IMG/VR virus record: IMGVR_UViG_3300044825_002288 | Location: 1-59,777 of that record | Direction: 5' to 3' (one strand) | DNA from: a virus | Lineage: Duplodnaviria; Caudoviricetes | DNA length: 59,777 nt | Shown here: one piece after another, positions 1 to 59,260 of the stretch | How positions within the stretch are numbered: position 1 is the first letter of the stretch | How the letters are laid out: every line of letters starts with the position of its first letter | Position numbers and translations under genes: made by a program | The notes under the pieces: model-generated | Seen by the model: only the letters and a program-made list of their open reading frames with translations | The model's database searches: none | Told to the model about the DNA's origin: nothing

Positions 1-62
1 GGGAGTCATCCACGGCGGTCATTAAGGCTACTGTCAAAACTGCTTTAACGATGGAGTAAATT

Positions 63-1217
63 ATGGCAGCAACTATTAACGGCGACGGCTTAATATCCCT
101 AGACGGTACACCATCAACTCAGGGTCGGGTGCGACTTGCTGAGGATACCGATAACGGGACTAACTATGTTGAGCTACAGGCGGCAACTAGTATTGCTTCT
201 AGTTTGACCTTTACTTTGCCTAACGCAGACGGCACTAGCGGTCAGGTATTACAGACCAATGGTTCAGGAGTACTGAGTTTTGCTACAGCCGCGTCAGCTA
301 ATTTCCAAGAGTTCACATCCTCTGGTACATGGACTAAGCCTTCAGGCGCAACATTTGTAATGGTTGAGGCGTGGGGTGCTGGTGGCGGTGGTGGTAGTGG
401 ATATAGGGGCGATGGATTAGGAATCCGTGGCGGCGGCGGTGGTGGTGGCGGCGGTGCTTTTACTCAAAGATTTTTTAAAGCCTCTGATCTTGGTGCAACA
501 GAAACCGTAACTATTGGCGCTGGTGGAACTGGAGGAACCGCTTCCACAGTAAATTGCAGCGCTGGTTGTGCGGCAACCGCTGGCGGTGATACAACTTTTG
601 GAAGTTGGCTAACTGCATTTGGTGGTGGTCGGGGTGGTGCTGGAACGGCTGGGGCAAATTCAGGAGGAGGTGGTGGTGGTGTATTAACTGCTGCTACAAC
701 TGCTAATGGAGGAGATCCATTTTCAAGACAGTGCGGCGCTACCACGGTTCAAGGCCAGTTTGGAGGCGGACTTGGACAAGCCGCAAGTCTTGGCAGACCG
801 TCAGGATGGGGTGGTGGTGGAGGCGGCTCTAATGGCGGTACTGGATCACCACAAGTGGGAGGATCTTCGTTTCAAGGCGGTCCCGGAGGCGGTTCAGGAG
901 GCGGACTAAACGCAGCTGGATGTGCTAGAGCAGGTTCTTCTGGAGGTGGAATTACTACAGCAGGCGGTAACGGAGCCGCTGGTGGTGCAGCCGCAGTTAA
1001 TGCTACTGCTAATGGGTCTAATGGAACCGCAGGTTCTGGAAGACAAGGTGCAGGAGGCGGTGGTTCTGGAGGGAATACTTCCGGCACAGGCGGAACCGGA
1101 GGAGCTGGGGGTCAGCCCGCAGGCGGTGGCGGTGGAGGTGGTGGCTCAACTAATGGTTCTAACTCCGGTGCTGGTGGAGCAGGTGGTGCAGGTCTTGTCC
1201 GTGTTTATACATGGTAG
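63..1217 (+). CDS. Gly-rich tail fibre/adhesin protein (A1)
   Basis: N-terminal fibre module (EDTDNGTNYV...TLP.ADGTSGQVLQTNGSG), then poly-Gly tracts with variable loops, ending [15 protein letters not shown] upstream. Confidence 0.8.
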   Translation: MAATINGDGLISLDGTPSTQGRVRLAEDTDNGTNYVELQAATSIASSLTFTLPNADGTSGQVLQTNGSGVLSFATAASANFQEFTSSGTWTKPSGATFVMVEAWGAGGGGGSGYRGDGLGIRGGGGGGGGGAFTQRFFKASDLGATETVTIGAGGTGGTASTVNCSAGCAATAGGDTTFGSWLTAFGGGRGGAGTAGANSGGGGGGVLTAATTANGGDPFSRQCGATTVQGQFGGGLGQAASLGRPSGWGGGGGGSNGGTGSPQVGGSSFQGGPGGGSGGGLNAAGCARAGSSGGGITTAGGNGAAGGAAAVNATANGSNGTAGSGRQGAGGGGSGGNTSGTGGTGGAGGQPAGGGGGGGGSTNGSNSGAGGAGGAGLVRVYTW

Positions 1218-1225
1218 GTGATCAA

Positions 1226-1465
1226 ATGAGATACGCAATTATTGAAAACGGAGTTGTGATCAATGTGGCCGAGGCAGACGCAGAGTTTGCCGCGCAACAG
1301 GGTTGGGTTGAGTGTCCAACCGCAGGCCCGGGATGGACTTATGCAAATGGAGTGTTTACAGCACCTCCTCCCGCTCCGATCCCAGAGCCTCCTCATGCCC
1401 CTACAAAAGAGCAGCTCATGGCTGAACTTGCAGCACTAACAGCAAAAATCCAAGCATTGGAGTAA
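1226..1465 (+). CDS. Small adhesin partner/chaperone-like protein, type X (MRYAIIENG...)
   Basis: ATG at 1226 after AGGTGA; directly follows the Gly-rich gene; near-identical copy at 59261-59500. Confidence 0.7.
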   Translation: MRYAIIENGVVINVAEADAEFAAQQGWVECPTAGPGWTYANGVFTAPPPAPIPEPPHAPTKEQLMAELAALTAKIQALE

Positions 1466-1468
1466 GAC

Positions 1469-2758
1469 ATGGCATCAATTATTAACGCATCATCGACCGG
1501 CTCTGGCGGTTTAATTAGCACTGCTGATGCCTCTGGTCAGTTAGAGCTTCAGGCAAACGGATCGACCAAACTAACGGTGACATCCTCTGGGGTGAGCATT
1601 ACCGGAGGTATTGCATCGCCTTTGGCCGTAACCGGAAACTCAACGGCTGGTGCTGAGATTCGATTACCGGAAGACACCGACAACGGCTCTAATTATGTGG
1701 CCCTGAAAGCAGCAGATAGCATTGCCAGTAATGTGACCTTCACCCTGCCAGCAGCCGATGGTACGAGCGGCCAAGTGCTTCAGACCAACGGATCTGGAAC
1801 GCTGAGTTTTGCTACACCGGCAGGTGCTAACTTCCAAGAATTTACATCCTCTGGAACTTATACCAAGCCCTCTGGCGCAACCTTTGTGCTTGTAGAGGCA
1901 TGGGCAGCGGGTGGTGGCGGAGGATCTGGTCAAAGATTTGCCGGAGGCGGAAATAGGTTTGGTGGAGCTGGTGGTGGTGGCGGTGCGTATGTTCAACGAT
2001 TATTTAAGGCTGCTTGTGTAGGAGCAACCGTAACCGTAACGATTGGCGCAGGCGGAGCAGGGGGAGCAGCACAAACAGTAAATACTTCAAATGGAAACAA
2101 TGGAGCTGCTGGCGGTAATACAACTTTTGGTTCGTTATTAACTGCTTATGGTGCTGGCGGTGGGGTTGGAGGACAAAGTAATACAGCCGGAGGTCACGGC
2201 GGCGGCGCATTAGCTAGTGGTGCTTGTGGTGGTCATCCGCGAGGAACCACAGGAGCTGTGTCATGTTCATGTGTTTGGGGTAATTTTGGTGGTGCGCTTG
2301 GTACTACTGTCACTGGTGGATCTAAAGCCGGTGGTTGGGGTGGTGCAAGCGGCGGGAGAACCACTATCGGTAATCCAGGAAATGCTGGTGGAGCAGCATT
2401 CCAAGGCGGCCCAGGCGGTGGTGCTGGTGGCGGCATAACTTGTGCTGATGCAAAACGAGCTGGCGGTGCTGGTGGAGGTAGTGTTTCAACATTATGTTGT
2501 GCGCGAGGCGGTGGTGGAGCCGGTGGTGCTGCTGCAGTTAATTCCTCAGGAAACGGTTCTGCTGGAACCGCAGGCTCTGGACGCCAAGGCGGTGGTGGCG
2601 GTGGATCAGGTGGTGAAGACAGCGGCACAGGCGGAACGGGTGGCGCAGGTGGTCAACCAGCCGGAGGTGGTGGTGGTGGTGGCGCTTCGACTAACGGATC
2701 AAATTCAGGCGCAGGTGGTGCCGGAGGCGCTGGTTTAGTTCGCGTCTACACTTGGTAA
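1469..2758 (+). CDS. Gly-rich tail fibre/adhesin protein (A2)
   Basis: Same architecture as A1 with a different N-terminus; [11 protein letters not shown]...GLVRVYTW body. Confidence 0.8.
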   Translation: MASIINASSTGSGGLISTADASGQLELQANGSTKLTVTSSGVSITGGIASPLAVTGNSTAGAEIRLPEDTDNGSNYVALKAADSIASNVTFTLPAADGTSGQVLQTNGSGTLSFATPAGANFQEFTSSGTYTKPSGATFVLVEAWAAGGGGGSGQRFAGGGNRFGGAGGGGGAYVQRLFKAACVGATVTVTIGAGGAGGAAQTVNTSNGNNGAAGGNTTFGSLLTAYGAGGGVGGQSNTAGGHGGGALASGACGGHPRGTTGAVSCSCVWGNFGGALGTTVTGGSKAGGWGGASGGRTTIGNPGNAGGAAFQGGPGGGAGGGITCADAKRAGGAGGGSVSTLCCARGGGGAGGAAAVNSSGNGSAGTAGSGRQGGGGGGSGGEDSGTGGTGGAGGQPAGGGGGGGASTNGSNSGAGGAGGAGLVRVYTW

Positions 2759-2767
2759 GGAATAGAC

Positions 2768-3127
2768 ATGAGATACGCAATCATTAAAGACGGCGTTGTT
2801 GAAAACATCGTAGAAGCCACGCCTGAAGTAGCAAGTGAAAACGGATGGGTTCAATGCCCTGAACACGATGATGAGCAAAACGCCATCAGTCCAAGATTCT
2901 TGTTTTCCAACAATAAATTTACCAAGCCTCCGAGAAACATAGAGGCTGAGTGGAACGCTGTCCGCGCCCAACGAAATGCTTTGTTAAGCCAGTCGGACTG
3001 GACGCAGGCATCTGATGTTCCGCAGGCAACAAAGGATAAATGGGCGGTGTATCGGCAAGCTTTGAGAAATATTCCTCAAACATTTTCCGACCCAAAAGAT
3101 GTGGTTTGGCCTACTAAACCGGAGTAA
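2768..3127 (+). CDS. Tail fibre assembly chaperone-like protein, type Y
   Basis: C-terminal WNAVRAQRNALLSQSDWTQ..D...W..YRQALR.IPQ...WP.KP is typical of phage tail assembly chaperone proteins; N-terminus is similar to type X. Confidence 0.8.
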   Translation: MRYAIIKDGVVENIVEATPEVASENGWVQCPEHDDEQNAISPRFLFSNNKFTKPPRNIEAEWNAVRAQRNALLSQSDWTQASDVPQATKDKWAVYRQALRNIPQTFSDPKDVVWPTKPE

Positions 3128-3130
3128 ATC

Positions 3131-3394
3131 ATGGCTAAAGACTTTCCTGATCTGACAGGCGATGGCAAGGTAACCCATGCTGATGTTCTGAAGGGCCGTG
3201 GCGTATTTAAAAAGGGCGGAAGCACGGACAAGTGGATTCAAAAGGCAATTTCTAAACCGGGTGCCTTAAAGAAACAATTGGGCGTTCCTGCCGACAAAAA
3301 GATTCCTGCCAAGACCCTAAATAAGGCTGCTAAGGCTCCGGGTAAGTTAGGTCAGCGGGCTAGACTCGCCAAGACACTGCGGGGTTTCGATTGA
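3131..3394 (+). CDS. Small basic protein (DLTGDGKVT loop + FKKGG + Lys-rich module)
   Basis: 87 aa ORF with RBS; the copy at 59504 differs mostly at synonymous sites, which supports coding. Confidence 0.8.
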   Translation: MAKDFPDLTGDGKVTHADVLKGRGVFKKGGSTDKWIQKAISKPGALKKQLGVPADKKIPAKTLNKAAKAPGKLGQRARLAKTLRGFD

Positions 3395-3661
3395 ATGGAA
3401 TGGCAAACCGTCATAAACATCGGCGGGGGTTCCCTCTTAGCCGCTCTAGGATGGTTTGCTAGAGAAATTTGGGACGCCGTGAAAGAGCTCCGCAGAGATA
3501 TGCACCGTATTGAACGAGATCTTCCCGACATCTATGCCAAAAAAGATGAGATGAGGGAGACCTTTAAAGAGGTGCGTCAGGATATGAATCAGGGATTCAA
3601 CAAAATTGAGTCCATGATTGGACAACTATTTGACAGGCTAAACAACAAAGCAGATCGGTAA
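3395..3661 (+). CDS. Putative membrane/coiled-coil protein in lysis region
   Basis: N-terminal hydrophobic helix followed by a heptad-like region. Confidence 0.65.
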   Translation: MEWQTVINIGGGSLLAALGWFAREIWDAVKELRRDMHRIERDLPDIYAKKDEMRETFKEVRQDMNQGFNKIESMIGQLFDRLNNKADR

Positions 3662-3725
3662 TGGGGTTGTGGACTTTTGCCTTTTTGGGTGTGTTGGTAA
3701 TTGTGCTTAGTTTTTCACTTGGAAT

Positions 3726-4148
3726 ATGGAGTTGGTGATGTTTGCAGACAAAGAGCTAAAACGAGCCAAAATCGACATAAAGGCAGAGTTAAATAGGCTT
3801 AATGCCCAACAAACCGCCAAAGAAGTCGCAGGAAAGTCAATTGGCCGATTCGGCCTTTTTTACATCACTCTGATCGTAATTATTGGCGTGGCGGCTAGCC
3901 TTCAGTTGGAAGAGGGCAAGATGGCCGCCGTAATGGGACTGCTGGGCGCCTCGCTTACAGCCCTGATCTCCATGATGAACGGGATTGCCGGGGCTACCCC
4001 AAAGCAAGAAAAACCCGAGTTTGAGATTATGAAGCAACTTATTGAGCATCTTGATCGGATGGCTGATCGTGACCCAATGACAGTCGATGTGGACGGAGAA
4101 AAGGTTACCGTCCGTAAAGGCGATAACGAAATTAAAACGGTGAGGTAA
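3726..4148 (+). CDS. Two-TM membrane protein (start may be 3738)
   Basis: Two hydrophobic segments; upstream of the holin-like gene. Confidence 0.6.
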   Translation: MELVMFADKELKRAKIDIKAELNRLNAQQTAKEVAGKSIGRFGLFYITLIVIIGVAASLQLEEGKMAAVMGLLGASLTALISMMNGIAGATPKQEKPEFEIMKQLIEHLDRMADRDPMTVDVDGEKVTVRKGDNEIKTVR

Positions 4149-4150
4149 TT

Positions 4151-4561
4151 ATGTTTCCTATAGCCGCTTTACTTGATGTTGGAATGAAAGTGCTGGATAA
4201 GGTCATGCCTGATCCGGCGGCCAAGGCTCAAGCCCAACTTGCCTTGATGGAAGCTAGTCAGAAGGGTGAGCTTGCCCAGCTTCAGGCTGATGTGAATGAG
4301 CAGATGGAGTTAACCAAGCGCCTTGAGGCCGACATGGCCTCGGATTCTTGGTTATCCAAAAACATCCGGCCAATGACATTGATATTCATTTTGATTGCTT
4401 ATTCTTTTTTTGCCGTTGGATCGGGAGTTAATTTTCAGGTCAATGAAAAATATGTGGAATTACTTGGTCAGTGGGGAATGTTGATTATGTCCTTTTATTT
4501 CGGCGGCAGAACGCTTGAAAAAATTATGGACATGAAATCAAAAAAGGAAGACAAGAAGTGA
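4151..4561 (+). CDS. Holin-like protein (GTA 3TM holin type)
   Basis: DSWLSKNIRP + TM segments + FYFGGRTLEK; adjacent to the endolysin. Confidence 0.75.
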   Translation: MFPIAALLDVGMKVLDKVMPDPAAKAQAQLALMEASQKGELAQLQADVNEQMELTKRLEADMASDSWLSKNIRPMTLIFILIAYSFFAVGSGVNFQVNEKYVELLGQWGMLIMSFYFGGRTLEKIMDMKSKKEDKK

Positions 4562-5007
4562 ACCCGCAAGACAAACTATCGGAGAACTTTACTTATGAAG
4601 AACTTACTCGCTCTGAAACAGCGGATCGTAACGGCTGGGAAAACATTCCTAACGAAGCTGAAATCGAAAATCTCCGCCGTCTGGCCGCGCTCCTCCAAGA
4701 AGTCAAAAAAGCGGTAGGCGGCAAACCGGTCATGATCAATTCGGCTTTTCGGTCGAAAAAGGTCAATGACGCCGTAGGATCGAAAGACACCTCCCAGCAT
4801 CGTTTGGGATGTGCTGCAGACATCCGAGTGCCGGGTATGCGGCCTCGGGAGGTGGTGGAGGCTTGTATCGCCGCCAAAGTGCCTTTTGACCAAATCATCC
4901 TTGAGTTTGATTCTTGGACTCATATCTCGGTGCCGAATACACCTCAGATGCAGGCTAGAGGCCAAAAGCTGATAATTGACAAACAGGGAACTAGGGCATT
5001 TTCATGA
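4558..5007 (+). CDS. Endolysin, peptidase M15A-type
   Basis: LSENFT..E, INSAFRS...N.AVG....SQH..G.AAD and W.HIS Zn-peptidase motifs. Confidence 0.85.
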   Translation: MNPQDKLSENFTYEELTRSETADRNGWENIPNEAEIENLRRLAALLQEVKKAVGGKPVMINSAFRSKKVNDAVGSKDTSQHRLGCAADIRVPGMRPREVVEACIAAKVPFDQIILEFDSWTHISVPNTPQMQARGQKLIIDKQGTRAFS

Positions 5008-5411
5008 GCACGGCCGTTAAATCTGACCCCTCTAAATGGAAGCGCATCGTCGCCTCGGTGAAAGCCTCGGGCAAGGGCGGCGCTCCGGGTCAGTGGTCGG
5101 CTCGGAAGGCTCAATTGGCCACCCAAAAGTACAAGTCCTCAGGCGGGGGCTATAAAGGGCCAAAAAAGGCCGATAACAGCCTCTCCCAGTGGAGCAAGCA
5201 GGAATGGGGTACCAAGTCTGGCAAGCCTTCTACGGTAGGTCCAAAAGCCACTGGGGAGCGGTATCTGCCCAAAAAGGCCATCCAAGGGCTTTCTTCGGCT
5301 GAATACGCCGCCACAACCCGCGCCAAGCGGGAAGGGAAGGCTGCCGGCAAACAGTTTGTCTCTCAGCCAAAAAGTATTGCTGAGAAAACCGCCAAATATA
5401 GGAGTTGGTGA
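5004..5411 (+). CDS. Basic conserved phage protein (DUF5872-like)
   Basis: GQWSARKAQL and ERYLPKKA motifs; Lys-rich. Confidence 0.65.
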   Translation: MSTAVKSDPSKWKRIVASVKASGKGGAPGQWSARKAQLATQKYKSSGGGYKGPKKADNSLSQWSKQEWGTKSGKPSTVGPKATGERYLPKKAIQGLSSAEYAATTRAKREGKAAGKQFVSQPKSIAEKTAKYRSW

Positions 5412-6046
5412 TGACAGTCGCCGCCGTAATGACCTATGACTCTTTGGTCAATGATATTTCGACTTATCTTGAGCGGACGGACACGGCCACCCTAGAGAAG
5501 ATCCCGACTTTCATTATGTTGGCCGAACAGGTTATTGCCTCAGAAATCAAGTTTTTGGGCAATCTGACGGTCCAGCAAAGCACTATGGTAGCCACCCAGC
5601 CAGTCATCGATAAGCCCGCTAGATGGCACAAAACGGTATCTATGAATGTGGTTGTGGCGGGGGAGCGCAGACCGGTCCTGCTTCGGAAGTACGAGTACCT
5701 CCGGGAGTACTGGCCGGACCCCACCCAAGTCGATGTGCCTAAGTTTTACTGCGACTATGACTATACCCATTGGTTAGTCGCCCCAAGCCCTGCCTCAAAT
5801 TACACCTTTGAGGTGCTTTATTACGAGCGGATTCAGCCCTTGGATTCCTCAAACCAAACCAATTGGTTCACGATTTATGCCCCCCAGGCCCTGCTCTACG
5901 GATCACTCCTGCAGGCCATGCCGTTTTTGAAAAACGACGATCGTATGCCTATGTGGCAGGCTCAGTACGACAAGATTATCAATACCTTGAAGACTGAAGA
6001 CCTCACCCGAATCGCCGATCGTCAATCAACAGTATTGGATTCATGA
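5411..6046 (+). CDS. Putative head-tail adaptor/tail tubular protein
   Basis: MTYDSL...I..YLER.D N-terminus and LLYGSLLQA.PFLK motif; first gene of the tail block. Confidence 0.6.
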   Translation: MTVAAVMTYDSLVNDISTYLERTDTATLEKIPTFIMLAEQVIASEIKFLGNLTVQQSTMVATQPVIDKPARWHKTVSMNVVVAGERRPVLLRKYEYLREYWPDPTQVDVPKFYCDYDYTHWLVAPSPASNYTFEVLYYERIQPLDSSNQTNWFTIYAPQALLYGSLLQAMPFLKNDDRMPMWQAQYDKIINTLKTEDLTRIADRQSTVLDS

Positions 6047-7287
6047 TGAGCTATAACTCGCCATTTACCGGTAATGTAATCCAGCCAACCGATGTGGCCT
6101 ATCGGGCCATTACGCTGTCTGCAAACCTTCAGCTTGAGTGGCCAATCAACGGTAACGCTACCAATGACTATGCCGCTAGGATCATGGATGTCACGGCAAC
6201 TGTGGGTAGCCTTACCCTTGAAATGCCGCCAGCCAATCAGGCATCCGTAGGTAACGATGCCCTGATCCGAAATGTCGGTCTAAATGCCTTTACCGTAGCT
6301 GACTACGATGGAACCACGATTGTCTCAATCGCCGCCGGTGAGGCTAAGTACATCTATATTGAAACCAACCCGGATGAGGCTGGTACTTGGGGTGTCATCG
6401 CCTTCGGTGTTGGAACATCAAACGCAGACGCCGGAACCTTGGCTGGATATGGGCTATTGGCGATCGCAAATACCCTAAATCAGTCTCACCCAGTAGCTAC
6501 TTATTCAAGCAACTTTACTTTAGATGATACCAACCGTGCTGAGTCGGTAGTTTGGACCGGTGGAGCTGGAACTCTAACTTTAACGCCTGCTGGAACACTA
6601 GGGAATAATTGGTTCGTACTGATCCGAAATAACGGAAGTGGAACTCTCACGATTGCCACCTCTGGCGGACAACTCATTGATTCGTCAACGACTTTAGATC
6701 TTCAGCCGACAGACTCATGCTTTGTCATTTCCTCAGGAACGGCGTTTTATAGCGTTGGCTTGGGTAGATCAACCCAGTTTAATTTCACTCAGCTTACAAA
6801 GGCGGTGACTACCGGAACCTATACTTTGACTCCGGTAGAGGCATCCAATGTCATTCAAAAGTACACCGGAACGCTGACCGGTAATGTCACAGTAGAGCTG
6901 CCTCAGACTATTCAGATTTATTACATCACCAATCAAACCGATGGAACCGGTGCAAATTACACCATCACCTTTACAACCGGTGTGCCTGGGTCCGGAACAG
7001 CAGTAATTCCTGCCGGGCAGCAAGCCATATTGCTTTGTGATTCTGTCAATTTATTAAATGCCTCAACCATTCTTGCCGGCATATCAAATATTCAGCTCGA
7101 TGATGGCACGGTTGGCGCTCCAAGCCTTGCATTCTCAAGCGAAGCCGACACCGGTATTTACCGTCCAGGTGCAGGTCAATTCGGAGTAACCGTATTGGGA
7201 ACCCAAAGATTTAGGGCGACTACTGCGGGTATTGTTGTGACCGGAACAGGAACCTTTTCAGGCGGTGTGCTTGGCGGGACTTTCTGA
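6043..7287 (+). CDS. Tail structural protein
   Basis: Beta-rich Thr/Gly composition, DGTVGAPSLAF..DTGIY fibre motif, C-terminal GGTF. Confidence 0.65.
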   Translation: MMSYNSPFTGNVIQPTDVAYRAITLSANLQLEWPINGNATNDYAARIMDVTATVGSLTLEMPPANQASVGNDALIRNVGLNAFTVADYDGTTIVSIAAGEAKYIYIETNPDEAGTWGVIAFGVGTSNADAGTLAGYGLLAIANTLNQSHPVATYSSNFTLDDTNRAESVVWTGGAGTLTLTPAGTLGNNWFVLIRNNGSGTLTIATSGGQLIDSSTTLDLQPTDSCFVISSGTAFYSVGLGRSTQFNFTQLTKAVTTGTYTLTPVEASNVIQKYTGTLTGNVTVELPQTIQIYYITNQTDGTGANYTITFTTGVPGSGTAVIPAGQQAILLCDSVNLLNASTILAGISNIQLDDGTVGAPSLAFSSEADTGIYRPGAGQFGVTVLGTQRFRATTAGIVVTGTGTFSGGVLGGTF

Positions 7288-9527
7288 TGACCCAAAAGGT
7301 TTTTGCTATCGATACCCTCGCTGGAATACAGCGGGACGGTACAGTATTTGATAAGCAGTTTTACAACGATGGCCGCTGGGTAAGGTTTCAGCGTGGCCGC
7401 CCCCGTAAGATCGGGGGATATCGTGTCATCTCTAATGAGCTAACAGGCCCATCGAGGGGTATTTGGGTCAACGCCCAAAATAACTTTAATTACATTTTCT
7501 CTGGTTATTCGGACGGACTTCAAGAGCTTGTCATTGACGATAACGGTGTGGGTGCTGGGGTGGTGAACTTCACGCTATCAGACTTCACCCCATCGGCATT
7601 AAATCTTTGGCAGTTTGATGGTTTTTACGATGTCGCTGGAGCAGGGGTTAGTTCGCTTGTCGCCCATCCAGGTCAAGACCTAGCGGCAATCGATAACACA
7701 ACAAACACCCCTGTTTTAATTGGTGACATCAACGGCACCACAATGAGTCAAATTGGTGTTTTTGATTTAAATGCAACCTTGGTAAATGGTTCGCCAAACA
7801 TAACTTTGGCCACGGCTAGCACTTTGGTTGGCGCTGGTCAGTCAGTGTCTGGAAACGGAATAGCGGCTAATACAACGGTAGTGTCTGTATCAGGCACAAC
7901 TGTAACGCTTTCACAAAACGCAACAATGTCAATTACCGATACAGTGACATTTAATAATAATGTATCGGTCTCCGGTGGTGTGGTCGTTTTGCATCCGTAT
8001 GTCTTTGTTTACGGAAACAATGGTCTTATAAGAAACTGCTCATCCGGAAACGCTCAGGATTGGGTCTCTGCAGATGCCAATGAGGTCAATGTAGCAACAG
8101 GCAAGATCGTTCAGGGTCTGCCAGTTCGTGGTGGTTCAAACTCTCCATCAGGGCTTTTTTGGTCAATTGACTCGCTAGTACGGGTATCTTACGCACCTCA
8201 ATCTTTGGGTATCCCAAATTCAGGAGATTTTGCTGCACCGACTTTTTGGCGGTACGACATTATCTCGTCCCAAACTTCAATTCTGTCATCTCAGTCGGTG
8301 ATTGAATATGACGGTGTTTATTACTGGTGCGGAGTAGACCGATTCTTGCTCTATAACGGTGTGGTCAAAGAGATTCCTAATCAGATGAATCAAAACTACT
8401 TCTTTGATAATCTGAACTACACCCAAAGACAAAAAGTTTGGGCAACGAAAGTTCCCCGATTTGGTGAGGTGTGGTGGTTCTATCCCAAGGGAAACTCAAC
8501 TGAGTGCAACGATGCCATCATCTATAACATCCGTGAAAACACTTGGTATGACGCTGGGACTGCTTTAGGCGCCCGTCGATCAGCAGGATACTTCTCTCAG
8601 GTTTTTGCTTACCCTGTTGAGGCTGATTGGGTAACTCTCCCGCAAGAAACAGTCTTGGTTGAGTCGATGAGCTATATCTTAGGTTTAGATAAGATTGGCT
8701 TGGACACCTATTACACAGAACTAAAAACCAATTTGCTTGTTACGGGAGCAGATATTCCGGCAAGCACCACCCTTACCGCCATACAGTCTAGCGGGGTTAA
8801 AACCCTAGGAACCTTGACGGCTGGATCGGGCTACACAGATGGAACTTATAACAATGTTCCATTTACTGGCGGTTCAGGTGCTGGAGCTACCGCACAAGAA
8901 ATCATAATAGTTGCCGGTCAAGTCATTTCGGTCACGCTTGGTGAGTATGGTGCTGCATATCAAATTGGCGACTCCCTGTCAGCGGATGATGCCGATCTTG
9001 GGGGTGGTGGAGGTGCTGGTTTTGCCATCGATGTAGATGCGCTTTATGTGATGGTTTTAAGCCTATCGAGCGCACCGACGGCTACTGACACCGCAGAATT
9101 AACTTTTTCAACCCCTGAGAATCGGATTGAGGTCTATCAGCACGAGATTGGGACTGACGCAATTAACGGCCAAAACATTACTGCAATTGAGTCTTATTTT
9201 GAGACCTCAGATCTTGGGTGGGTTGCCGGCGGCCCTTCCCAGCCATCAATGGACGGTGCGAATCGGTGGTTAAGGCTTGAGCGGATTGAGCCGGACTTTA
9301 TCCAAAACGGGCAGATGAGCGTAATCGTTACCGGACGGCCATACGCTCAGATTGAGGATCAAGACTCTAGCCCCTATGTCTTTGATCCGAACACCGGAAA
9401 GATTGATATGAAAGAGCAGCGCCGGGAACTACGGTTGCGGTTCATTTCTAATGTGGTCGGTGGCAACTATCAGCTGGGTCGTGTCATCCTTAACGCAGAT
9501 ATCGGCGATGTCCGAGGATACTCATGA
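7287..9527 (+). CDS. Putative tail nozzle/stabilisation protein with inserted beta domains
   Basis: 746 aa; DGRWVRFQRGRPRKIGG and FGEVWWFYP propeller-like motifs; located before the ejection genes. Confidence 0.6.
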   Translation: MTQKVFAIDTLAGIQRDGTVFDKQFYNDGRWVRFQRGRPRKIGGYRVISNELTGPSRGIWVNAQNNFNYIFSGYSDGLQELVIDDNGVGAGVVNFTLSDFTPSALNLWQFDGFYDVAGAGVSSLVAHPGQDLAAIDNTTNTPVLIGDINGTTMSQIGVFDLNATLVNGSPNITLATASTLVGAGQSVSGNGIAANTTVVSVSGTTVTLSQNATMSITDTVTFNNNVSVSGGVVVLHPYVFVYGNNGLIRNCSSGNAQDWVSADANEVNVATGKIVQGLPVRGGSNSPSGLFWSIDSLVRVSYAPQSLGIPNSGDFAAPTFWRYDIISSQTSILSSQSVIEYDGVYYWCGVDRFLLYNGVVKEIPNQMNQNYFFDNLNYTQRQKVWATKVPRFGEVWWFYPKGNSTECNDAIIYNIRENTWYDAGTALGARRSAGYFSQVFAYPVEADWVTLPQETVLVESMSYILGLDKIGLDTYYTELKTNLLVTGADIPASTTLTAIQSSGVKTLGTLTAGSGYTDGTYNNVPFTGGSGAGATAQEIIIVAGQVISVTLGEYGAAYQIGDSLSADDADLGGGGGAGFAIDVDALYVMVLSLSSAPTATDTAELTFSTPENRIEVYQHEIGTDAINGQNITAIESYFETSDLGWVAGGPSQPSMDGANRWLRLERIEPDFIQNGQMSVIVTGRPYAQIEDQDSSPYVFDPNTGKIDMKEQRRELRLRFISNVVGGNYQLGRVILNADIGDVRGYS

Positions 9528-9796
9528 GCACGCCTAAGAATCCTGTTGGTGGCCAGCCGCTGGTTTATGACCCGCGGTTTCATTCTTTTGAGTCTTGGGC
9601 GGCATTGATGTGCGAGCAATATGCCGCTCAACAGTTAGAGATTCCTAATCAGCTAACCGATTGGAAGTTATGGGGTGATGGATTAAAGGCTATTGATATC
9701 TTTACGAATGAGGCCATACCGTCAACGGAAAACTATGAAAATTGGTATGACTGGGCTGCAGCACTGCTCGCCGCAATAAATCCGAGGGTAGCGTAA
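9524..9796 (+). CDS. Hypothetical Trp-rich protein
   Basis: ATGA overlap with the upstream gene; fills the gap in the operon. Confidence 0.7.
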   Translation: MSTPKNPVGGQPLVYDPRFHSFESWAALMCEQYAAQQLEIPNQLTDWKLWGDGLKAIDIFTNEAIPSTENYENWYDWAAALLAAINPRVA

Positions 9797-17358: not shown

Positions 17359-18753
17359 ATGAACCTATCGTTTTATGAATCTCTGTCGGCAGATCAAAAG
17401 AATCTAGCTAATCAAATTGCAGAGCGGGCAAAGGCTCTCGGCATCCCGCCTGAGTTTGCAGTAGCCATTGCTTATCAGGAGAGCAGATTAAATCCCAAGG
17501 TAGGTCCGGGCTCGGTCGGTGAAATTGGTCTCATGCAGGTGCGCCCAGAAACGGGCAAAGAGTTGGGGTTCTCGGCTCAAGACTTAAGAGATCCAAATAA
17601 AAATATTGATGCTGGTCTTGCTTACCTAAAAAAGTCTTTAGAGCTGAGTGGTGGGGATACCCGTTTGGCGGCGGCAGGTTATAACGCTGGCGTTAATCAC
17701 CCCTTCTTTTCTAACGACAAGGCCAAGCTGCCGGATACAACGGTTAAGTATCTTGAAAGCCTAAAAGGCTTCGGTGCCTTTACCGGTCCCCAAGTGGGTG
17801 TGGAAGAAGGCGGTGAGGAAGAGATTCCCAAGGAAACGCGAAGGACGACTGAAGACATTGAACAGGGTCGTGCTGAGACAGCCGGTGCCATGTTGGGCGG
17901 CGGGGCGGGCACAGCCTTAACCGCGGCTCGGGTAGCCGCACCGGTTGTCGCTCCTGTTGCTCGGGGAGCGGCTGCCCTTGCAAGCAAGGTCATGAGTCCC
18001 GCTGCTCGACAGGCCGCAGAGTTAGTTGCTGGCCAAAGACCTATTGGACCAACTGCGCCGACTGCCATGCCTACCCCATCAGCTGGGATGCCTGCGGCCG
18101 GAGCGCCAACCCCTCCCCGGGCAACCGGGCCGGGATCAGCGGTAGTCAATTACGCCAAAGCCTTTGGATTACCTGATATTGAAGCTGGTAGGGCTACGAG
18201 CATGAGCGCGGAACCCGGCGGGGCTTGGGACCTGTTAAATCGGCGGCAGCAGGCTTTAAGCAACATCTCTCAGCGTTTTCCAAGCGAGCGGTACATTGAA
18301 AACCCCCGTTTTGGCGGCCTGATGACCCCTGATCAAGGTCCTGGCCCTAGGGCATCCTTCGTAAGCCAGCCAGGAGGCTTGCAACCGCTACCGCCACGGG
18401 CTCCAGTTCCAACCGCACCGGTCGGGGCACTTGAGCAGGTGAAGGGTATTTTCATGAATATGCTCGGCCCGAATACTGTTGGCAGGGCGGCGATCCGATA
18501 TGCAGCTCCGCCCTTGGCTGGGATGCAAATTGGCAAAGAGGTCGGAACCCTGCTGACTGAGGGTGGCCGGGAGGAACCGGATTACACCAAGATGGCTCTG
18601 TCTGGTCTGAGTGCTTTGGGTGCCGGGATGTCCTTATTCCCCGTTACGGCCCCGATCGGTATCCCTTTGGCAATCGGAGCGCCCCTGACTCAGGCTTATC
18701 GGGAAAAAATGCAGGGCGCACTACCCACTACAACTGAGGTAGTCGCCCCCTAA
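17359..18753 (+). CDS. Virion-associated lytic transglycosylase (SLT domain) with Pro/Ala-rich tail
   Basis: AYQES, GLMQV, NIDAG..YL and AAGYNAG SLT motifs. Confidence 0.85.
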   Translation: MNLSFYESLSADQKNLANQIAERAKALGIPPEFAVAIAYQESRLNPKVGPGSVGEIGLMQVRPETGKELGFSAQDLRDPNKNIDAGLAYLKKSLELSGGDTRLAAAGYNAGVNHPFFSNDKAKLPDTTVKYLESLKGFGAFTGPQVGVEEGGEEEIPKETRRTTEDIEQGRAETAGAMLGGGAGTALTAARVAAPVVAPVARGAAALASKVMSPAARQAAELVAGQRPIGPTAPTAMPTPSAGMPAAGAPTPPRATGPGSAVVNYAKAFGLPDIEAGRATSMSAEPGGAWDLLNRRQQALSNISQRFPSERYIENPRFGGLMTPDQGPGPRASFVSQPGGLQPLPPRAPVPTAPVGALEQVKGIFMNMLGPNTVGRAAIRYAAPPLAGMQIGKEVGTLLTEGGREEPDYTKMALSGLSALGAGMSLFPVTAPIGIPLAIGAPLTQAYREKMQGALPTTTEVVAP

Positions 18754-21297: not shown

Positions 21298-21507
21298 ATG
21301 ACCCTGCAGGAATACTTTGCCGATAAGAAAAGGGGCGCCAGAGTGGCTTTGGCTCAGGATCTTGGGATCACCCAGGTATGGTTAAGCCAGCTGATTTCAG
21401 GCCGTCAGGTCTGCTCGCCGGAACTGGCTTTGAAGATTGAAAAGCTCACGGAAGGGGCCGTTACCCGCATGGACTTGCGGCCGGATCTCTTTGGAGAAGT
21501 CGCATGA
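21298..21507 (+). CDS. Cro/YdaS-like HTH regulator
   Basis: LAQDLGITQVWLSQLISG...IEKLTEGAVTRMDLRPDLF. Confidence 0.85.
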   Translation: MTLQEYFADKKRGARVALAQDLGITQVWLSQLISGRQVCSPELALKIEKLTEGAVTRMDLRPDLFGEVA

Positions 21508-24969: not shown

Positions 24970-25161
24970 ATGAAAAAAGTAGAAGACGGCGCAGATCTTG
25001 GTGGGCATGTAGTTGCGTTGAATAGCCTGATGACGCAATTAAATAAAGAGGCAAGGCAAACCTATAAGCCTAATTATCAGGCGATTGCCAACATCGCAAG
25101 CTCAATGAAGATGCACGCAACGGTTATCGAGAGCTCAATGAAGCGGGAGCTTAAACAATGA
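24970..25161 (+). CDS. Hypothetical protein
   Basis: AGGAG RBS; in the operon. Confidence 0.6.
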   Translation: MKKVEDGADLGGHVVALNSLMTQLNKEARQTYKPNYQAIANIASSMKMHATVIESSMKRELKQ

Positions 25162-25490
25162 AAAAGCTACTGATTGCCTTGATGTTCATTCCAGCTATGG
25201 CCCGGGCTGAGTTCCTAACCGGAAACGATCTCTTTATGAAACTCACCGGAGATCTCGGAGACAGGATGTATGCCCTTGGGTATGTCGTTGGAATCTACGA
25301 TGTCAATGTTCATGTGACGATCTGCCCGCGGGTGGAAAGCACCATAACGGCCGGCCAAGTAAAAGACATCGCCCTTCAGCACCTAACTAATAACCCGGGG
25401 CAACGACACCGAAACGCTGAAGCCTTGGTCAGAGAATCTCTTGCTAAGGTTTGGCCATGCCAAAACAGGGGCTCAAGGAATCCGGTATGA
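25158..25490 (+). CDS. Secreted Rap1a/Tai-like immunity-family protein
   Basis: Signal peptide (MKKLLIAL...ARA), TGNDL, GYVVG..D, CP, T.GQV.DI, NP..RH..A, WPC. Confidence 0.7.
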   Translation: MKKLLIALMFIPAMARAEFLTGNDLFMKLTGDLGDRMYALGYVVGIYDVNVHVTICPRVESTITAGQVKDIALQHLTNNPGQRHRNAEALVRESLAKVWPCQNRGSRNPV

Positions 25491-25684: not shown

Positions 25685-25890
25685 AATATGTATTGATCGC
25701 TTTGCTTGTCGCCATCCTCGGGGTGTTAATTGAGAGTCGCTTAAATGACCAGTACCAGCTCGGATACCAGGAAGGGGTTAAGACTGCGTTAAAGACTAAC
25801 CCGCCCTCTGAGGAGCTTGAGCTGGCCTGCGTAGGGCTGTGGATTGGGGAGCAGAATCGAAAATATTGGCACAAGGAAGCAAGCCGATGA
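25681..25890 (+). CDS. Small membrane-anchored hypothetical protein
   Basis: N-terminal TM helix; ATGA overlaps on both sides. Confidence 0.6.
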   Translation: MKYVLIALLVAILGVLIESRLNDQYQLGYQEGVKTALKTNPPSEELELACVGLWIGEQNRKYWHKEASR

Positions 25891-27407
25891 AATATTTGTC
25901 CGTGTGCTCAGGTATTGAGGCAGCCACCTCGGCTTGGCACCACATGGGATGGGAGCCGGTGGCGTTCTCTGAAATTGAGCCATTCCCATCAGCCGTGCTT
26001 AAGCATCACTACCCGAATGTGCCGAACCTGGGCGATATGACTAAATTTAAGGAGTGGAATCTTGGATCAATTGACCTTCTTGTCGGAGGAACCCCCTGTC
26101 AGTCCTTCTCAGTCGCCGGACTCAGAAAAGGATTGGACGATCCGCGTGGCAACCTCATGCTCACCTTTGGTGCCATTGCTCGCCACTTCGCTCCCCGTTG
26201 GTTGGTTTGGGAGAATGTCCCTGGGGTCTTGTCGTCAAACGGAGGACGGGACTTTGGTACCTTCCTCGGAATGTTGGGAGAACTCGGGTATGGGTTCGCC
26301 TACAGAGTTCTTGACGCTCAGTACTTCGGAGTGGCCCAAAGACGCCGCCGTGTGTTCGTTGTCGGATGTCTTGGAAACTGGCGAGCTGCCGCAGCGGTTC
26401 TTTTTGAGCTCGCAAGCATGTCAGGGAATCCTCCGCCGAGCAGAGAAAAGGGGCAAGGAGTTACCCCCGGCTCTCCACCAGGCCCTCAGTACGGTGGCTC
26501 AAACGCAGAGTGTGCCGATACCGTCACAAGCAAATGGGCAAAAGGATCAGGAGGACCCTCAGGAAATGAGGGAGGATTATTCGTAGCCCAACCGGTCGGT
26601 CTGCCTGAGGTCATGTCCACCTTGTTGTCATCGACTGCCGGGGTATCCCGCCCCGGTAATGCGGCTACAGAGCATGAGACCTATATTCCGATGGCTTACC
26701 GGAAATCTAAGCGAGCTCATACCCAAGACGATGATGAGACATGGGTAGATGATGGGATTGCCAATACCGTCAACCTATTCGATCAAGGCGATACGCGCAC
26801 TACCCATGCCGTAGTTCAACCGATTCCGTTAGATTCCATGAACATCTTCCGAAGCCCGGAGGCAGACGCTTCAACAGGTTGTGGATTGGGGGAGGAGGGA
26901 GAGGCGATGTTTACCCTTACCAAAACAAACCATCACGCTGTAGCTCAACCCTTGAACATTTATGGTGGTAACAAGCGATCTGACAGGCCGGAGGGCGGGT
27001 TTTATGTCCGGATGAATGAGGACACAAGCAAAACCTTGGACGCCACTTCAGGGTTAAATCCGACTGCCAATCAGGGCGGGACTGCGGTGATGCAGCCGGT
27101 TGTCTTTCAGGAAACTGCCGATCCATTGACCGCTTGTTTTGCCAAACATCACGGCGCAAGCGGCGGGAAAGACAGCATTCCGCACAATCATGTTATGCAG
27201 TCGATGGCTGTGCGCCGCCTCACCCCGCGGGAATGTGAGCGGCTTCAAGGCTTTTCCGATGACCACACCCTGATCCCGTGGCGGGGCAAGGATGCCTCCC
27301 AATGCCCGGATGGCCCTCGATACAAGGCTTTAGGCAACTCTATGGCGGTTCCGGTCATGGCTTGGATCGGGGAGCGGATAAGGATGGTCTGTGAACTACA
27401 GAAATAA
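25887..27407 (+). CDS. DNA (cytosine-5) methyltransferase with a long variable region
   Basis: Motifs I (SVCSGIEA), IV (GGTPCQ), VI (ENV), VIII (QRRRRVF), IX (RRLTPRECERLQGF) and X (YKALGNS). Confidence 0.92.
   Translation: MKYLSVCSGIEAATSAWHHMGWEPVAFSEIEPFPSAVLKHHYPNVPNLGDMTKFKEWNLGSIDLLVGGTPCQSFSVAGLRKGLDDPRGNLMLTFGAIARHFAPRWLVWENVPGVLSSNGGRDFGTFLGMLGELGYGFAYRVLDAQYFGVAQRRRRVFVVGCLGNWRAAAAVLFELASMSGNPPPSREKGQGVTPGSPPGPQYGGSNAECADTVTSKWAKGSGGPSGNEGGLFVAQPVGLPEVMSTLLSSTAGVSRPGNAATEHETYIPMAYRKSKRAHTQDDDETWVDDGIANTVNLFDQGDTRTTHAVVQPIPLDSMNIFRSPEADASTGCGLGEEGEAMFTLTKTNHHAVAQPLNIYGGNKRSDRPEGGFYVRMNEDTSKTLDATSGLNPTANQGGTAVMQPVVFQETADPLTACFAKHHGASGGKDSIPHNHVMQSMAVRRLTPRECERLQGFSDDHTLIPWRGKDASQCPDGPRYKALGNSMAVPVMAWIGERIRMVCELQK
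26062..26586 (+). CDS. Nested alternative-frame ORF within the C5 MTase (beta-polypeptide-like)
   Basis: AAGGAG 7 nt before a TTG start; SLSDVLE...PQRFFLS..AC.GILRRAEKRGKELP motif. Confidence 0.5.
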   Translation: MDQLTFLSEEPPVSPSQSPDSEKDWTIRVATSCSPLVPLLATSLPVGWFGRMSLGSCRQTEDGTLVPSSECWENSGMGSPTEFLTLSTSEWPKDAAVCSLSDVLETGELPQRFFLSSQACQGILRRAEKRGKELPPALHQALSTVAQTQSVPIPSQANGQKDQEDPQEMREDYS

Positions 27408-29893: not shown

Positions 29894-30457
29894 ATGCCTG
29901 AAACTCGAAAGAAACAAACTGAAACCGAATCGGAATCCAAGTCGGTTTCGGATCAAGAGCCGCCGCAAAAATTCCCCATTGGCCGCCCAACAAAATACGA
30001 TCCTAAGTTAGCCGCAGATATTTGTGTCCGTATCTCCAATGGAGAACCATTAAGGCAGATATGTATGGATGAAGGTATGCCGGTACAGAGCACGGTATAT
30101 CTTTGGCTGTCCCGCTTTTCTGAGTTTTCGGAGATGTACACAAAAGCGAGGGAAGATCAGGCAGATACTTTGGCCGATGAGATCCAAGCTATTGCTGATG
30201 ATATGCCCCTGCAGAAGGTGGATAAGGACGGTGGCACCTCATTTGACTCGGCCTATATCCAATGGATGCGCCTGCGGGTGGACGCCAGGAAGTGGGTGGC
30301 TGCCAAGCTAAAGCCGAGGAAATATGGCGATCGGGTAGAGCTGGCTGGAGATAAAGATAACCCGCTCAAAATTGAAGCATCGATCGAAGCCAAAGGATTG
30401 TTTAACAACTTGCTGACGGCTATGGAGGCCAAAAAGCAGGTAAACCAAGAAAGGTAA
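29894..30457 (+). CDS. terS: Terminase small subunit
   Basis: GRPTKY....A..IC.RI..GE.LR.IC, Y..ARE.QAD.LADEI..IAD and RLRVDARKW.AAKLKP.KYGD motifs. Confidence 0.88.
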   Translation: MPETRKKQTETESESKSVSDQEPPQKFPIGRPTKYDPKLAADICVRISNGEPLRQICMDEGMPVQSTVYLWLSRFSEFSEMYTKAREDQADTLADEIQAIADDMPLQKVDKDGGTSFDSAYIQWMRLRVDARKWVAAKLKPRKYGDRVELAGDKDNPLKIEASIEAKGLFNNLLTAMEAKKQVNQER

Positions 30458-30460
30458 ATC

Positions 30461-30976
30461 ATGTCTACACCAAGACTACCACCACCAGAACTGGCACCGG
30501 AATCAGTTAGTGATGATCAGATTCGAGCATATTTGAGCTCAAACCCAGGGCTTTCTGACAGAGACATCGCTAAGGCGATGGACCAATACGGGGTCTCGGT
30601 AAGCCAGATGGCGAGAGCTACAGGTGGAAATTTAGAAGAAATAGGAAATCGGTATCGGCAGGCGTCTGCAGCTGATGCAGCGGCAATCAGCCCGACTCCG
30701 GCCCCAAGGGTGACCGATGAGGAAAAAGTGATTGCGGGCATTGAGGGATTCCGCCCGATGGAGGTTAGGTCTCCGGAAGTTGGGATGCCGAATGAAAAGA
30801 GGATTGGAGCCTATGTTCCGCGCATCCGTGGCGGAGAACCGAGACAGCCGGAGTATTTTCTTCCGATGGCGGCTTTGGACCCCCTTTCATCTGCACGGAC
30901 AACGCTGTCTGCCTCAAGCCCGCGGGCCTATAAAAAGGGCGGGGCGGTGAAAAAGATGTCAAAGGGTAAGTGGTAA
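30461..30976 (+). CDS. Hypothetical protein inserted between terS and terL, with a C-terminal YKKGG tag
   Basis: N-terminal module homologous to the N-terminus of 9799-14667. Confidence 0.7.
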   Translation: MSTPRLPPPELAPESVSDDQIRAYLSSNPGLSDRDIAKAMDQYGVSVSQMARATGGNLEEIGNRYRQASAADAAAISPTPAPRVTDEEKVIAGIEGFRPMEVRSPEVGMPNEKRIGAYVPRIRGGEPRQPEYFLPMAALDPLSSARTTLSASSPRAYKKGGAVKKMSKGKW

Positions 30977-30980
30977 GTGC

Positions 30981-47493: not shown

Positions 47494-47834
47494 TGCCTAG
47501 ATTCCTAGACACCCGCGCCCTAACATCTGTAGCCATCGGTGTATGTGATCGATGCAAGATGAAACGCGCCTATGTCAATCTAGGCCCCGATCCTAACTTC
47601 CCAGGATTGCGCGTATGCGATCAAGGATGCAAGGATCAATTTGACCCCTACAGGCTGCCGGCTCGGAAGACTGAGCGAATTAACCTTCGCTTTCCCCGCC
47701 CAGATGTAAGTGTCGCCAATGTCCAACCGGCCTTGCAGACCGGGGGTTATGGCCAGTTCCTGATATCGACACAGGACAACCAAAATATCCCGGAAAACGA
47801 TGGCAACCTCGATGTAATTAGCCCGAGCCCATAA
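47493..47834 (+). CDS. Cys-containing (CDRC...C...C) head-completion-region protein
   Basis: AIGVCDRC...LRVC...C.D..DP...LRFPRPD. Confidence 0.65.
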   Translation: MPRFLDTRALTSVAIGVCDRCKMKRAYVNLGPDPNFPGLRVCDQGCKDQFDPYRLPARKTERINLRFPRPDVSVANVQPALQTGGYGQFLISTQDNQNIPENDGNLDVISPSP

Positions 47835-53083: not shown

Positions 53084-53085
53084 AA

Positions 53086-53655: not shown

Positions 53656-53664
53656 GGAGCAGAC

Positions 53665-55205: not shown

Positions 55206-55207
55206 CA

Positions 55208-55594: not shown

Positions 55595-55596
55595 TT

Positions 55597-56546: not shown

Positions 56547-56549
56547 ATT

Positions 56550-57713: not shown

Positions 57714-57722
57714 GGAATAGAC

Positions 57723-58082: not shown

Positions 58083-58085
58083 GAC

Positions 58086-59252: not shown

Positions 59253-59260
59253 GTGATCAA

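Follow-up and report, generated by a model that had tools for sequence, protein, structure and literature searches.

The window analysed here is the whole of IMG/VR virus record IMGVR_UViG_3300044825_002288 (59,777 bp; entered there as a linear sequence that lacks end repeats; CheckV completeness 100), and it begins and ends with a cassette of glycine-rich tail fibre genes, each followed by a small partner gene. Cassette A, at the start, holds fibre A1 with partner X and fibre A2 with partner Y; cassette B, at the end, holds fibre B1 with partner Y and fibre B2 with partner X (Table 1). A preliminary description of the window, made from the sequence alone, had set out this layout and the swap of partners, which the open reading frames (ORFs) and exact matches confirm, and had read the two cassettes as tandem paralogues of one genome. 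We find that the swapping of modules is real and is ordinary phage host-range variation, and that the impression of two cassettes in one genome was most likely made by the assembly: A and B are probably alleles of a single two-fibre locus in a circularly permuted genome of about 56.4 kb, assembled twice from co-occurring strains. A greedy call on the window yielded 78 ORFs of 50 amino acids (aa) or longer, 68 of them on the + strand, and these were labelled with PHROGs beside Pfam, the latter at E <= 0.01 for 34 ORFs and at E <= 0.001 for the other 44.

Table 1. Features of cassettes A and B, of their flanks and of the remainder of the window.
Feature	Position	Strand	Evidence or remark
3' end of 85-aa gene copy, 19 codons and stop	1-62	+	Contig begins inside gene; 1-88 identical to 56488-56575
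Fibre A1, N1 anchor and W-type glycine-rich body, 384 aa	63-1217	+	Pfam Gly_rich_2, 28.5 bits; phrog_863, tail
Partner X, copy A, 79 aa from MRYAII	1226-1465 (ORF open from 1211)	+	98% identical to 59246-59500
Fibre A2, N2 anchor and Y-type glycine-rich body, 429 aa	1469-2758	+	Pfam Gly_rich_2, 36.8 bits
Partner Y, copy A, 119 aa, tail-fibre assembly chaperone family	2768-3127	+	Phage_tail_APC, 73.8 bits; phrog_4912, tail fiber assembly
87-aa gene, copy A, closes variable locus	3131-3394	+	90.9% identical to 59491-59777; 83% aa identity in L009
88-aa gene, first core gene after locus	3395-3661	+	First 10 nt recur as the contig's last 10 nt
2OG-Fe(II) oxygenase (238 aa) and 85-aa gene, left flank	55576-56546	+	Pfam 2OG-FeII_Oxy_5; 98% and 99% aa identity in L009
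Fibre B1, N1 anchor and Y-type body, 387 aa	56550-57713	+	Gly_rich_2, 34.4 bits
Partner Y, copy B	57723-58082	+	Phage_tail_APC, 75.6 bits
Fibre B2, N2' anchor and W-type body, 388 aa	58086-59252	+	Gly_rich_2, 43 bits
Partner X, copy B	59261-59500 (ORF open from 59246)	+	59154-59507 against 1119-1472: 93.5% nt identity
87-aa gene, copy B	59504-59767	+	
First 10 nt of 88-aa gene copy	59768-59777	+	Contig ends inside gene; 59751-59777 identical to 3378-3404
Third, upstream fibre unit: anchor-like ORF (206 aa), overlapping Gly_rich_2 ORF (315 aa), partner Z (132 aa)	53665-55594	+	Gly_rich_2, 65.6 bits
SU10-type adaptor	5405-6046		Pfam/PHROGs
Internal virion protein with SLT domain	17359-18753		Pfam/PHROGs
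Sf6-type small terminase and T4-type large terminase	29894-32399		Pfam/PHROGs
Capsid protein	41712-42626		Pfam/PHROGs
Collagen-repeat fibre	47834-50233		Pfam/PHROGs

The fibres are Gly_rich_2 (PF21722) domains of the polyglycine type, like gp33 of mycobacteriophage Bxb1 (chain 9d93_Qa). All four exceed the Pfam gathering cut-off of 24.3 bits (28.5 to 43.0 bits), and phmmer matched B2 to gp33 at E 6.1e-7, with a further match of the fibres at E 2.2e-4. An AlphaFold2 (AF2) model of A1, built from an alignment of 21 relatives (predicted local distance difference test score 78.6, with residues 1-55 of low confidence), was matched by Foldseek to 9d93_Qa at E 7.7e-11, with template modelling scores of 0.44 (query) and 0.70 (target), and to the fibre of cyanophage Pam3 (7ypx_A) at E 7.8e-5; the glycine-rich domains of ALK and LTK matched the model weakly (E 0.04-0.4). 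In the 21 aligned fibres all but 10 of the invariant columns past position 105 are glycine, and conserved blocks alternate with unconserved stretches. Each fibre consists of a position-specific anchor, a block of about 40 residues that comes in two types, a centre of about 240 residues of glycine-rich and variable sequence, which differs in each of the four genes, and an invariant C-terminal strand. The anchors follow position, the first gene always carrying N1 (which begins MAATINGDG in A1) and the second an N2-type anchor (which begins MASIINASSTGSGG in A2); A2, B2 and the second fibre of the related IMG/VR locus L009 are alike over their first 30 or so residues. The two-type block carries the motifs TWTK/VMVEAWG/FKASDLG in A1 and B2 (W type) and TYTK/VLVEAWA/FKAACVG in A2 and B1 (Y type). 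Family and position suggest that the fibres are borne in the virion tail and bind the host surface.

Partner Y is a Phage_tail_APC (PF16778) chaperone by family and position: both copies lie far above the cut-off of 26.6 bits, and the gene begins 10 nucleotides (nt) past the fibre stop codon. It presumably acts as a chaperone for the fibre. Partner X matched no Pfam family at E <= 0.01, and the C-terminal APC part of Y is absent from it. The two proteins begin alike (ATGAGATACGCAAT), the N-terminal 55 aa of X being 45% identical to Y (E 1e-15), and only these N-terminal 50 or so aa are common to both. X belongs to PHROGs 14370 and 22737, both of unknown function; phrog_14370 is also common to partner Z of the third fibre unit, and the atlas neighbours of X are unnamed viral clusters. 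X ends in a short, conserved, helix-like tail, and its last 20-25 residues (...KEQLMAELAALTAKIQALE) are found again, at 90-100% identity, downstream of numerous fibres of unrelated types (with ends such as ...FRLYGIANS and ...INIAYI) at loci L191-L215 (e.g., L196:3001-3063 and L202:3001-3060). The N-terminal half is variable in these cases, and such genes look like a modular chaperone with a common C-terminal helix. A 39-mer from the 3' end of X was found in no other IMG/VR contig, in a scan that may omit the window's own record. Complex prediction for A1 residues 78-384 with X gave no answer (score 0.00) and counts neither for nor against binding.

The four fibre genes are mosaics in which blocks change partners at conserved anchors, as the preliminary description had proposed. 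A1 is identical to B2 over 44 nt (294-337 = 58305-58348) and again over 87 nt where the 3' end runs into X (1206-1292 = 59241-59327); A2 is identical to B1 over 31 nt (1877-1907 = 56835-56865) and over 141 nt where the 3' end runs into Y (2711-2851 = 57666-57806). The first and last of these identities, together with the motifs quoted above, had been reported previously and are borne out. By blastn, cassettes A and B are 90.7% identical over 567 nt in the Y region, 93.5% over 354 nt in the X region, 87.7% over 106 nt in the early body of A1 and B2, and 79% over 537 nt in the N1 region (79% also for 1-532). Sliding windows along an alignment of the four genes pair A1 with B1 in the N-terminal third (76-91%); at columns of about 360-420 they pair A1 with B2 (85-92%) and A2 with B1 (82-92%), and the same pairs return in the last 80 or so columns (82% and 78%, respectively). 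In the centre of the fibre every pair has only 30-65% nucleotide identity.

The 139 quartet-informative sites tell the same story: 48 group the genes by position (A1 with B1, A2 with B2), 64 group them in the swapped fashion (A1 with B2, A2 with B1) and 27 group them by cassette. The grouping by position holds at 13 of the first 16 informative sites, swapped sites lie at columns of about 340-500, and 10 of the 12 informative sites within the last 69 columns are again swapped. Because the informative sites are clustered along the gene, forming 73 runs as against 88.7 +/- 5.5 in 10,000 shuffles (p = 0.003), the mosaic goes beyond what chance would produce. The middle of the body, which had been described as common to A1 and B1, is the weakest part of the pattern: the motifs quoted for it are present, but columns 801-1200 hold 22 sites that group by position, 14 that are swapped and 12 that group by cassette, at the low identity that characterizes all pairs in the centre. 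The difference between A and B need not reflect a patchwork of many pieces. The simplest description is that of two old unit types, a W-type body with X and a Y-type body with Y, in opposite order behind fixed anchors and with hypervariable centres. No outside donor was seen for either cassette; since none of the loci fetched for comparison exceeds 82% identity in any 150-nt bin, A and B are mutually closest among the sequences compared.

A further part of the earlier proposal, that the termini of the body co-evolve with the cognate partner, is not supported. All four fibres end in the same 18 residues, and in the last 18 codons the X-linked and Y-linked genes differ at synonymous sites alone, which argues for shared descent or linkage of a DNA segment and not for co-adaptation of the proteins. 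Pairing was also surveyed among 118 distinct ORFs of the fetched loci, each immediately upstream of a gene like X, Y or Z. Of these, 24 were kept because they have the T[WY]TKP motif and because the match to the partner begins no later than the partner's tenth residue. Among these outside fibres, 16 combine the W type with X, 4 the Y type with X and 4 the W type with Y, and none combines the Y type with Y. The rule that links the early body to the partner is therefore broken outside the window, in 8 of the 24 fibres; one of them, in L009, is of the TYTK/FKAACVG type and yet has a partner of the X type behind it. A search with the fibre alignment picked up low-complexity glycine patterns (6 loci), and the X and Y queries served better.

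The manner in which the window ends bears directly on the relationship between A and B. Their homology extends from base 1 (1-88 = 56488-56575, exact) through the last base (3378-3404 = 59751-59777, exact), and at each end the contig breaks off within a gene whose other copy is intact, the 85-aa gene before B and the 88-aa gene after A; the frame at 1-62, ending ...RESSTAVIKATVKTALTME and a stop codon, agrees with the end of the complete 85-aa gene at 56289-56546. The identity of 88 of 88 nt in the left flank, set against 76-91% in the adjoining N1 region, fits a common core better than an old duplicate. The ends do not form direct terminal repeats: the counterpart of the first 88 nt is internal, 3.3 kb short of the end, and the two end regions agree at only 79-93% of positions. 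Phages with Sf6-type and T4-type terminases are headful packagers with circularly permuted genomes, which assemble as circles. Because its small terminase is of the Sf6 type and its large terminase of the T4 type, the phage of the window would likewise package by the headful mechanism and have a circularly permuted genome.

Judging from the gene order of relatives, the two ends of the contig are neighbours around a circle. We fetched 80 IMG/VR loci by means of the 2OG-Fe(II) oxygenase (2OG) protein, 59 of which have at least 1500 nt downstream of the 2OG/85-aa pair. The first non-fibre homologue of a window protein downstream of the pair corresponds to a gene of the window's first 15 kb, on the same strand, in 28 of the 59; it is another gene in 4 (L027, L050, L059 and L070, three of which continue to a window-start gene), and none was detected in 27. 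In L011, L040, L052 and L074, the relatives most like the window in their structural genes, the genes that come after the 2OG/85-aa pair are those for the 140-aa and 135-aa proteins, the adaptor (58-78% identity) and the 414-aa and 746-aa proteins. L011, which has no fibre at the locus, shows the order 2OG, 85-aa, 140-aa, 135-aa (78%), adaptor (78%) and 414-aa, and the single contig of L074 has a homologue of the gene at 46179 at one extreme and of 9524-9796 at the other. GenBank entry MW202545.1, whose annotation is that of a complete circular genome (57,457 bp), matches 27 of the 78 window proteins (major capsid protein 89%, large terminase 68% and portal 64% identical) and is collinear with the window joined end to start: a second adaptor-like gene, collagen-type fibre, fibre, small genes, endolysin, adaptor (57%), 414-aa and 746-aa genes.

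The 2OG/85-aa pair itself is, judging from its distribution, a module that moves. Its identity stays at 70-98% between phages with structural proteins of no more than 25-45% identity (records G001 and G002), and in MW202545.1 it lies at 4771-5636, in the early region and outside the fibre module; synteny of loci found through the pair must therefore be weighed by the identity of the neighbouring genes. G001 and G002 are large records and, at that identity of their structural proteins, only distant relatives. Near relatives vary at the fibre locus as alleles do: in L009, whose oxygenase and 85-aa gene are nearly identical to those of the window (98% and 99%, respectively), it holds just one fibre, with an N1 anchor, followed by a partner of the X type and by the 87-aa gene (83%), and L011 has no fibre there. 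A 27-mer at the joint of the 85-aa gene and N1 was found in IMG/VR only in the contig of L009 and in none of the metagenome contigs, again in a scan that may omit the window's own record. Past its 87-aa gene L009 has a very different lysis cassette (L009:12596-14036), and the mosaic zone reaches beyond the fibres there.

Other contigs of this phage group have run round in the same way. Metagenome contig Ga0214919_10000479 (loci L245 and L253; 68,272 bp) has two copies of the 85-aa gene at a distance of 55.8 kb, and its two passes are 80-92% identical where they can be aligned and unalignable over about 3.7 kb; it was assembled more than once round the circle via another strain. In record G002 the head (1-351) matches the record's own tail with 84.6% identity over 351 nt. 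With three such contigs in the group, a diverged repeat that begins with the very first base of a viral contig and stops only at the final one is best read first as a circle assembled past its start via a second strain. A 21.7-kb metagenome contig (L266) carries 2OG and the 85-aa gene twice at shorter range (734-1665 and 6324-7237, 5.6 kb apart) and may represent a true tandem duplication of the module.

Data on the population came from Logan contigs (k = 31) of four runs, in pieces of 0.3-2 kb, which were compared with 52000-59777. Three freshwater metagenome runs (X1-X3) hold most of the window's words; X1 and X3 come from a single sample and X2 has the same size as X3, and this is possibly the sample from which the window came. 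In X1-X3, Logan contigs with no differences cover B1 at 56546-56861 and 56836-57695 and B2 at 58319-59252, and cassette A is also present (word share of 0.90-0.91 for window 1-7000). Another Logan contig leaves B1 at 57168 for sequence absent from the window; at least three versions of the locus, A, B and one further, are present in one sample. A contig with one difference ties the B-type 3' part of Y to N2' (57985-58334), and the pieces break at the common 31-nt and 44-nt words. The presence of several versions in X1-X3 is not independent support for the reading of A and B as alleles, because the sample may be the source sample. Logan contig depth in X2 (6.4-12.7 for B, 15-18.8 for the core) was not used, as contig depth cannot rank the parts of a stretch.

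That A and B are one locus in two versions is the simplest reading, because the cassettes sit at both ends of the contig, the flanking gene copies are truncated and the ends adjoin in relatives; for the same reasons the earlier view of tandem cassettes in one genome is not sustained. We suggest that a single hypervariable host-recognition locus would lie between the 85-aa gene and the 87- and 88-aa genes and would hold two tandem units of a fibre gene and a chaperone gene, each fibre having an N1 or N2 anchor according to position, a putative receptor-binding domain of the Gly_rich_2 family and the invariant C-terminal strand. Several strains in the sample would share a common core and differ at this locus, and the assembler, having made one full turn of the circle, would have written the locus out two times, so that the contig opens with A and closes with B. 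Behind the fixed anchors the two versions would hold the W-type body with X and the Y-type body with Y in reversed order, and the centres of the bodies have diverged to the point where their nucleotides scarcely align. Relatives that infect the same cell may recombine homologously at three short stretches conserved in DNA, namely, the junction of anchor and body (the 44-nt identity from 294), the 3' end encoding the last 18 residues and the 5' end of the partner (MRYAII), and such exchange would re-sort anchors, binding domains and chaperones. Homologous recombination at conserved anchors, as previously proposed, thus stands as the natural mechanism; its placement between tandem paralogues of one genome does not. 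A and B would accordingly reside on different molecules, and both this and the exact phasing of the four units are what we infer from the assembly and the relatives.

Several points weigh against an assembly of one locus twice. The exact overlaps of the ends, 88 and 27 nt, are unlike those of a simple bubble with a single k-mer size. A and B occur together in all three phage-holding runs, no sample with a single version having been seen, and true local duplications occur in relatives (L266). The CheckV value of 100% completeness cannot separate 56.4 kb from 59.8 kb, the 141- and 87-nt exact repeats leave the order of the units to the assembler's resolution, and no Logan piece compared with 52000-59777 bridges the 85-aa gene into A or B into the 88-aa gene.

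A rather unlikely alternative retains one locus and several strains but holds that A and B are wrongly phased, the assembler having switched strain at the 87- or the 141-nt repeat, so that the layout of a reciprocal swap would be unreal. The true haplotypes could then be, for example, one with a single fibre (N1, W-type body, X and the 87-aa gene, as in the layout of L009) and one with three, the four units still being real. Both exact repeats lie at the joints of fibre end and partner start, the closest relative, L009, has precisely such a single fibre, its N1 fibre and partner of the X type standing between the 85-aa and 87-aa genes, Logan contigs break within the common 31-nt and 44-nt words and there are further variants in the population, all of which would suit such a switch. 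Set against this, 87 nt are spanned by 150-nt reads and by k-mers longer than 87, and 141 nt by read pairs, so that a modern assembler would usually phase such repeats; and the Logan contig with one difference joins the 3' part of a B-type Y to N2', as in the window. Because the 141- and 87-nt repeats are exact, the order of the four units on a molecule depends on the assembler. The units themselves (N1, W-type body and X; N2, Y-type body and Y; N1, Y-type body and Y; N2', W-type body and X) are fixed by unique sequence around the shorter shared words.

It is unlikely that one genome holds both cassettes as the product of an old, diverged tandem duplication of the whole locus, with four glycine-rich fibres and a contig broken at the joint. 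The order would then be the 85-aa gene, B, the 87-aa gene, a remnant joint, A, the 87-aa gene and the 88-aa gene, and exchange would take place between true paralogues. This arrangement would explain why the contig ends lie at the outer edges of the 88-nt and 27-nt exact repeats, where assemblers tend to stop, and why A and B occur together in every phage-holding run (one sample and a likely duplicate); moreover, the number of fibre units varies among relatives, L266 has the 2OG/85-aa module in tandem, and 59.8 kb is no unusual length among relatives, MW202545.1 having 57.5 kb and two records with direct terminal repeats 62.1 kb. However, it requires copied fragments of both flanking genes and a joint seen in no record, and a non-functional remnant of the 85-aa gene that is identical at 88 of 88 nt, yet has functional neighbours only 76-91% identical. 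No relative examined here has two 87-aa genes or four such fibres, and direct self-closure of the contig predicts an identical end overlap, of which IMG/VR found none. Quite unlikely, too, is the broader picture of one podovirus genome of about 60 kb in which four polyglycine-type fibres, with both types of binding domain on both anchors, would form a combinatorial host-range array kept diverse by copy exchange. Programmed variation, in which site-specific inversion, a shufflon or a diversity-generating retroelement would switch fibre ends within one genome, is very improbable: alternative fibre ends with their own chaperones do recall the G segment of Mu and the C segment of P1, but no recombinase, integrase or reverse transcriptase family was found by Pfam among the 78 ORFs, in agreement with the absence of an invertase or reverse transcriptase noted earlier (the template and variable repeats of a retroelement were not searched for), all eight cassette genes are on the same strand, and inverted repeats of at least 16 nt are absent from 1-3700 and limited to one 16-nt pair at 88% in 56000-59777.

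With A and B taken as versions of one locus, the window is most likely the full contig of a podovirus-like phage from fresh water, so far uncultured, with headful packaging and a circle of about 56.4 kb. Pfam and PHROGs give a tailed-phage gene set that includes a run of glycine-rich fibre genes, which sit in a module between a collagen-type fibre and the lysis genes. A third fibre unit lies upstream of the 2OG gene, its partner Z (55196-55594) matching phrog_7759 and phrog_14370. The unit appears to be split into a 206-aa ORF with an anchor-like N terminus (...EDTDNGTNYV...TLPS motif) and a 315-aa ORF in another frame, with an overlap of 28 nt, and it could be a frameshifted fibre, programmed or broken, or a fibre in two parts. 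Within the fibre module, just 3' of the collagen-repeat fibre, 50233-53083 holds three glycosyltransferase-type genes, one of them fused to an FkbM methyltransferase domain, which may serve in the modification of fibres or of host surface sugars. Elsewhere, the early region encodes a Rap1a-type immunity protein (25158-25490; Pfam 50.4 bits) and a YdaS-type helix-turn-helix protein (21298-21507), and a C-5 cytosine methylase is encoded at 25839-27407.

The modular exchange of fibre parts and chaperones at a hypervariable locus is of a known kind and calls for no new mechanism. In P2, Mu, P1 and the lambdoid phages, the C-terminal module of the fibre travels with a downstream chaperone gene of the Tfa/Phage_tail_APC kind, alternative modules giving alternative host ranges, and the invertible S-U/S'-U' fibre segments belong among such modules of fibre and chaperone. 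Partner Y of the window is likewise a Phage_tail_APC member downstream of a fibre; in contrast to the invertible segments, the window has no invertase found by Pfam and no inverted repeats of note, its genes are co-directional, and the variation would be between genomes of a population rather than a switch within one genome. What is particular here is the Gly_rich_2 domain, solved so far in Bxb1 and Pam3, the fixed pair of anchors and the two types of chaperone with a common N-terminal domain. We describe an uncultured freshwater podovirus whose two-gene host-recognition locus would have its anchors, domains and chaperone types re-sorted between co-occurring strains at a few short anchors, which may offer defined break points for fibre-swap experiments.

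Metaviromic islands, as described by Mizuno et al. (2014, PMC3909814), include hypervariable host-recognition regions within otherwise conserved phage populations. The fibre locus of the window may be comparable, with a divergent centre between near-identical flanks (88 of 88 and 27 of 27 nt, and 98% and 99% for the 2OG and 85-aa proteins of L009) and with A and B occurring together in X1-X3; metaviromic islands are defined by under-recruitment of reads, and the data for this locus are contigs. With regard to the fold, the Bxb1 gp33 'tail wing brush' (PDB 9D93) and the Pam3 fibre (7YPX/7YFW) are of the same Gly_rich_2 family by sequence and structure, although they come from other types of phage with other hosts and their N-terminal anchors are unrelated to those of the window; in the account given in PMC13243192, gp33 and the Pam3 fibre are polyproline-II/polyglycine helical bundles that resemble gp38 of phage S16. 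The long tail fibre's tip in T-even phages, gp37/gp38, has been described as having a receptor-binding domain made up of conserved glycine-rich motifs that separate hypervariable segments, with a small conserved C-terminal motif, and exchanges are located within these glycine-rich motifs or close to them (Trojet et al. 2011, PMC3157838). The window fibres differ from gp38 in that they have no GP38 Pfam match at E <= 0.01, S16 gp38 (6F45) is not among the Foldseek matches listed, and a separate chaperone is encoded downstream, in a phage that is podovirus-like and not a myovirus; gp38 is, moreover, a separate cap protein, whereas the domain of the window is fused to its own virion anchor. They too, however, have conserved glycine blocks alternating with variable stretches and a conserved C-terminal end, and the design typified by gp38, with its conserved glycine motifs and variable loops, would thus extend to Gly_rich_2 domains that are fused to the fibre.

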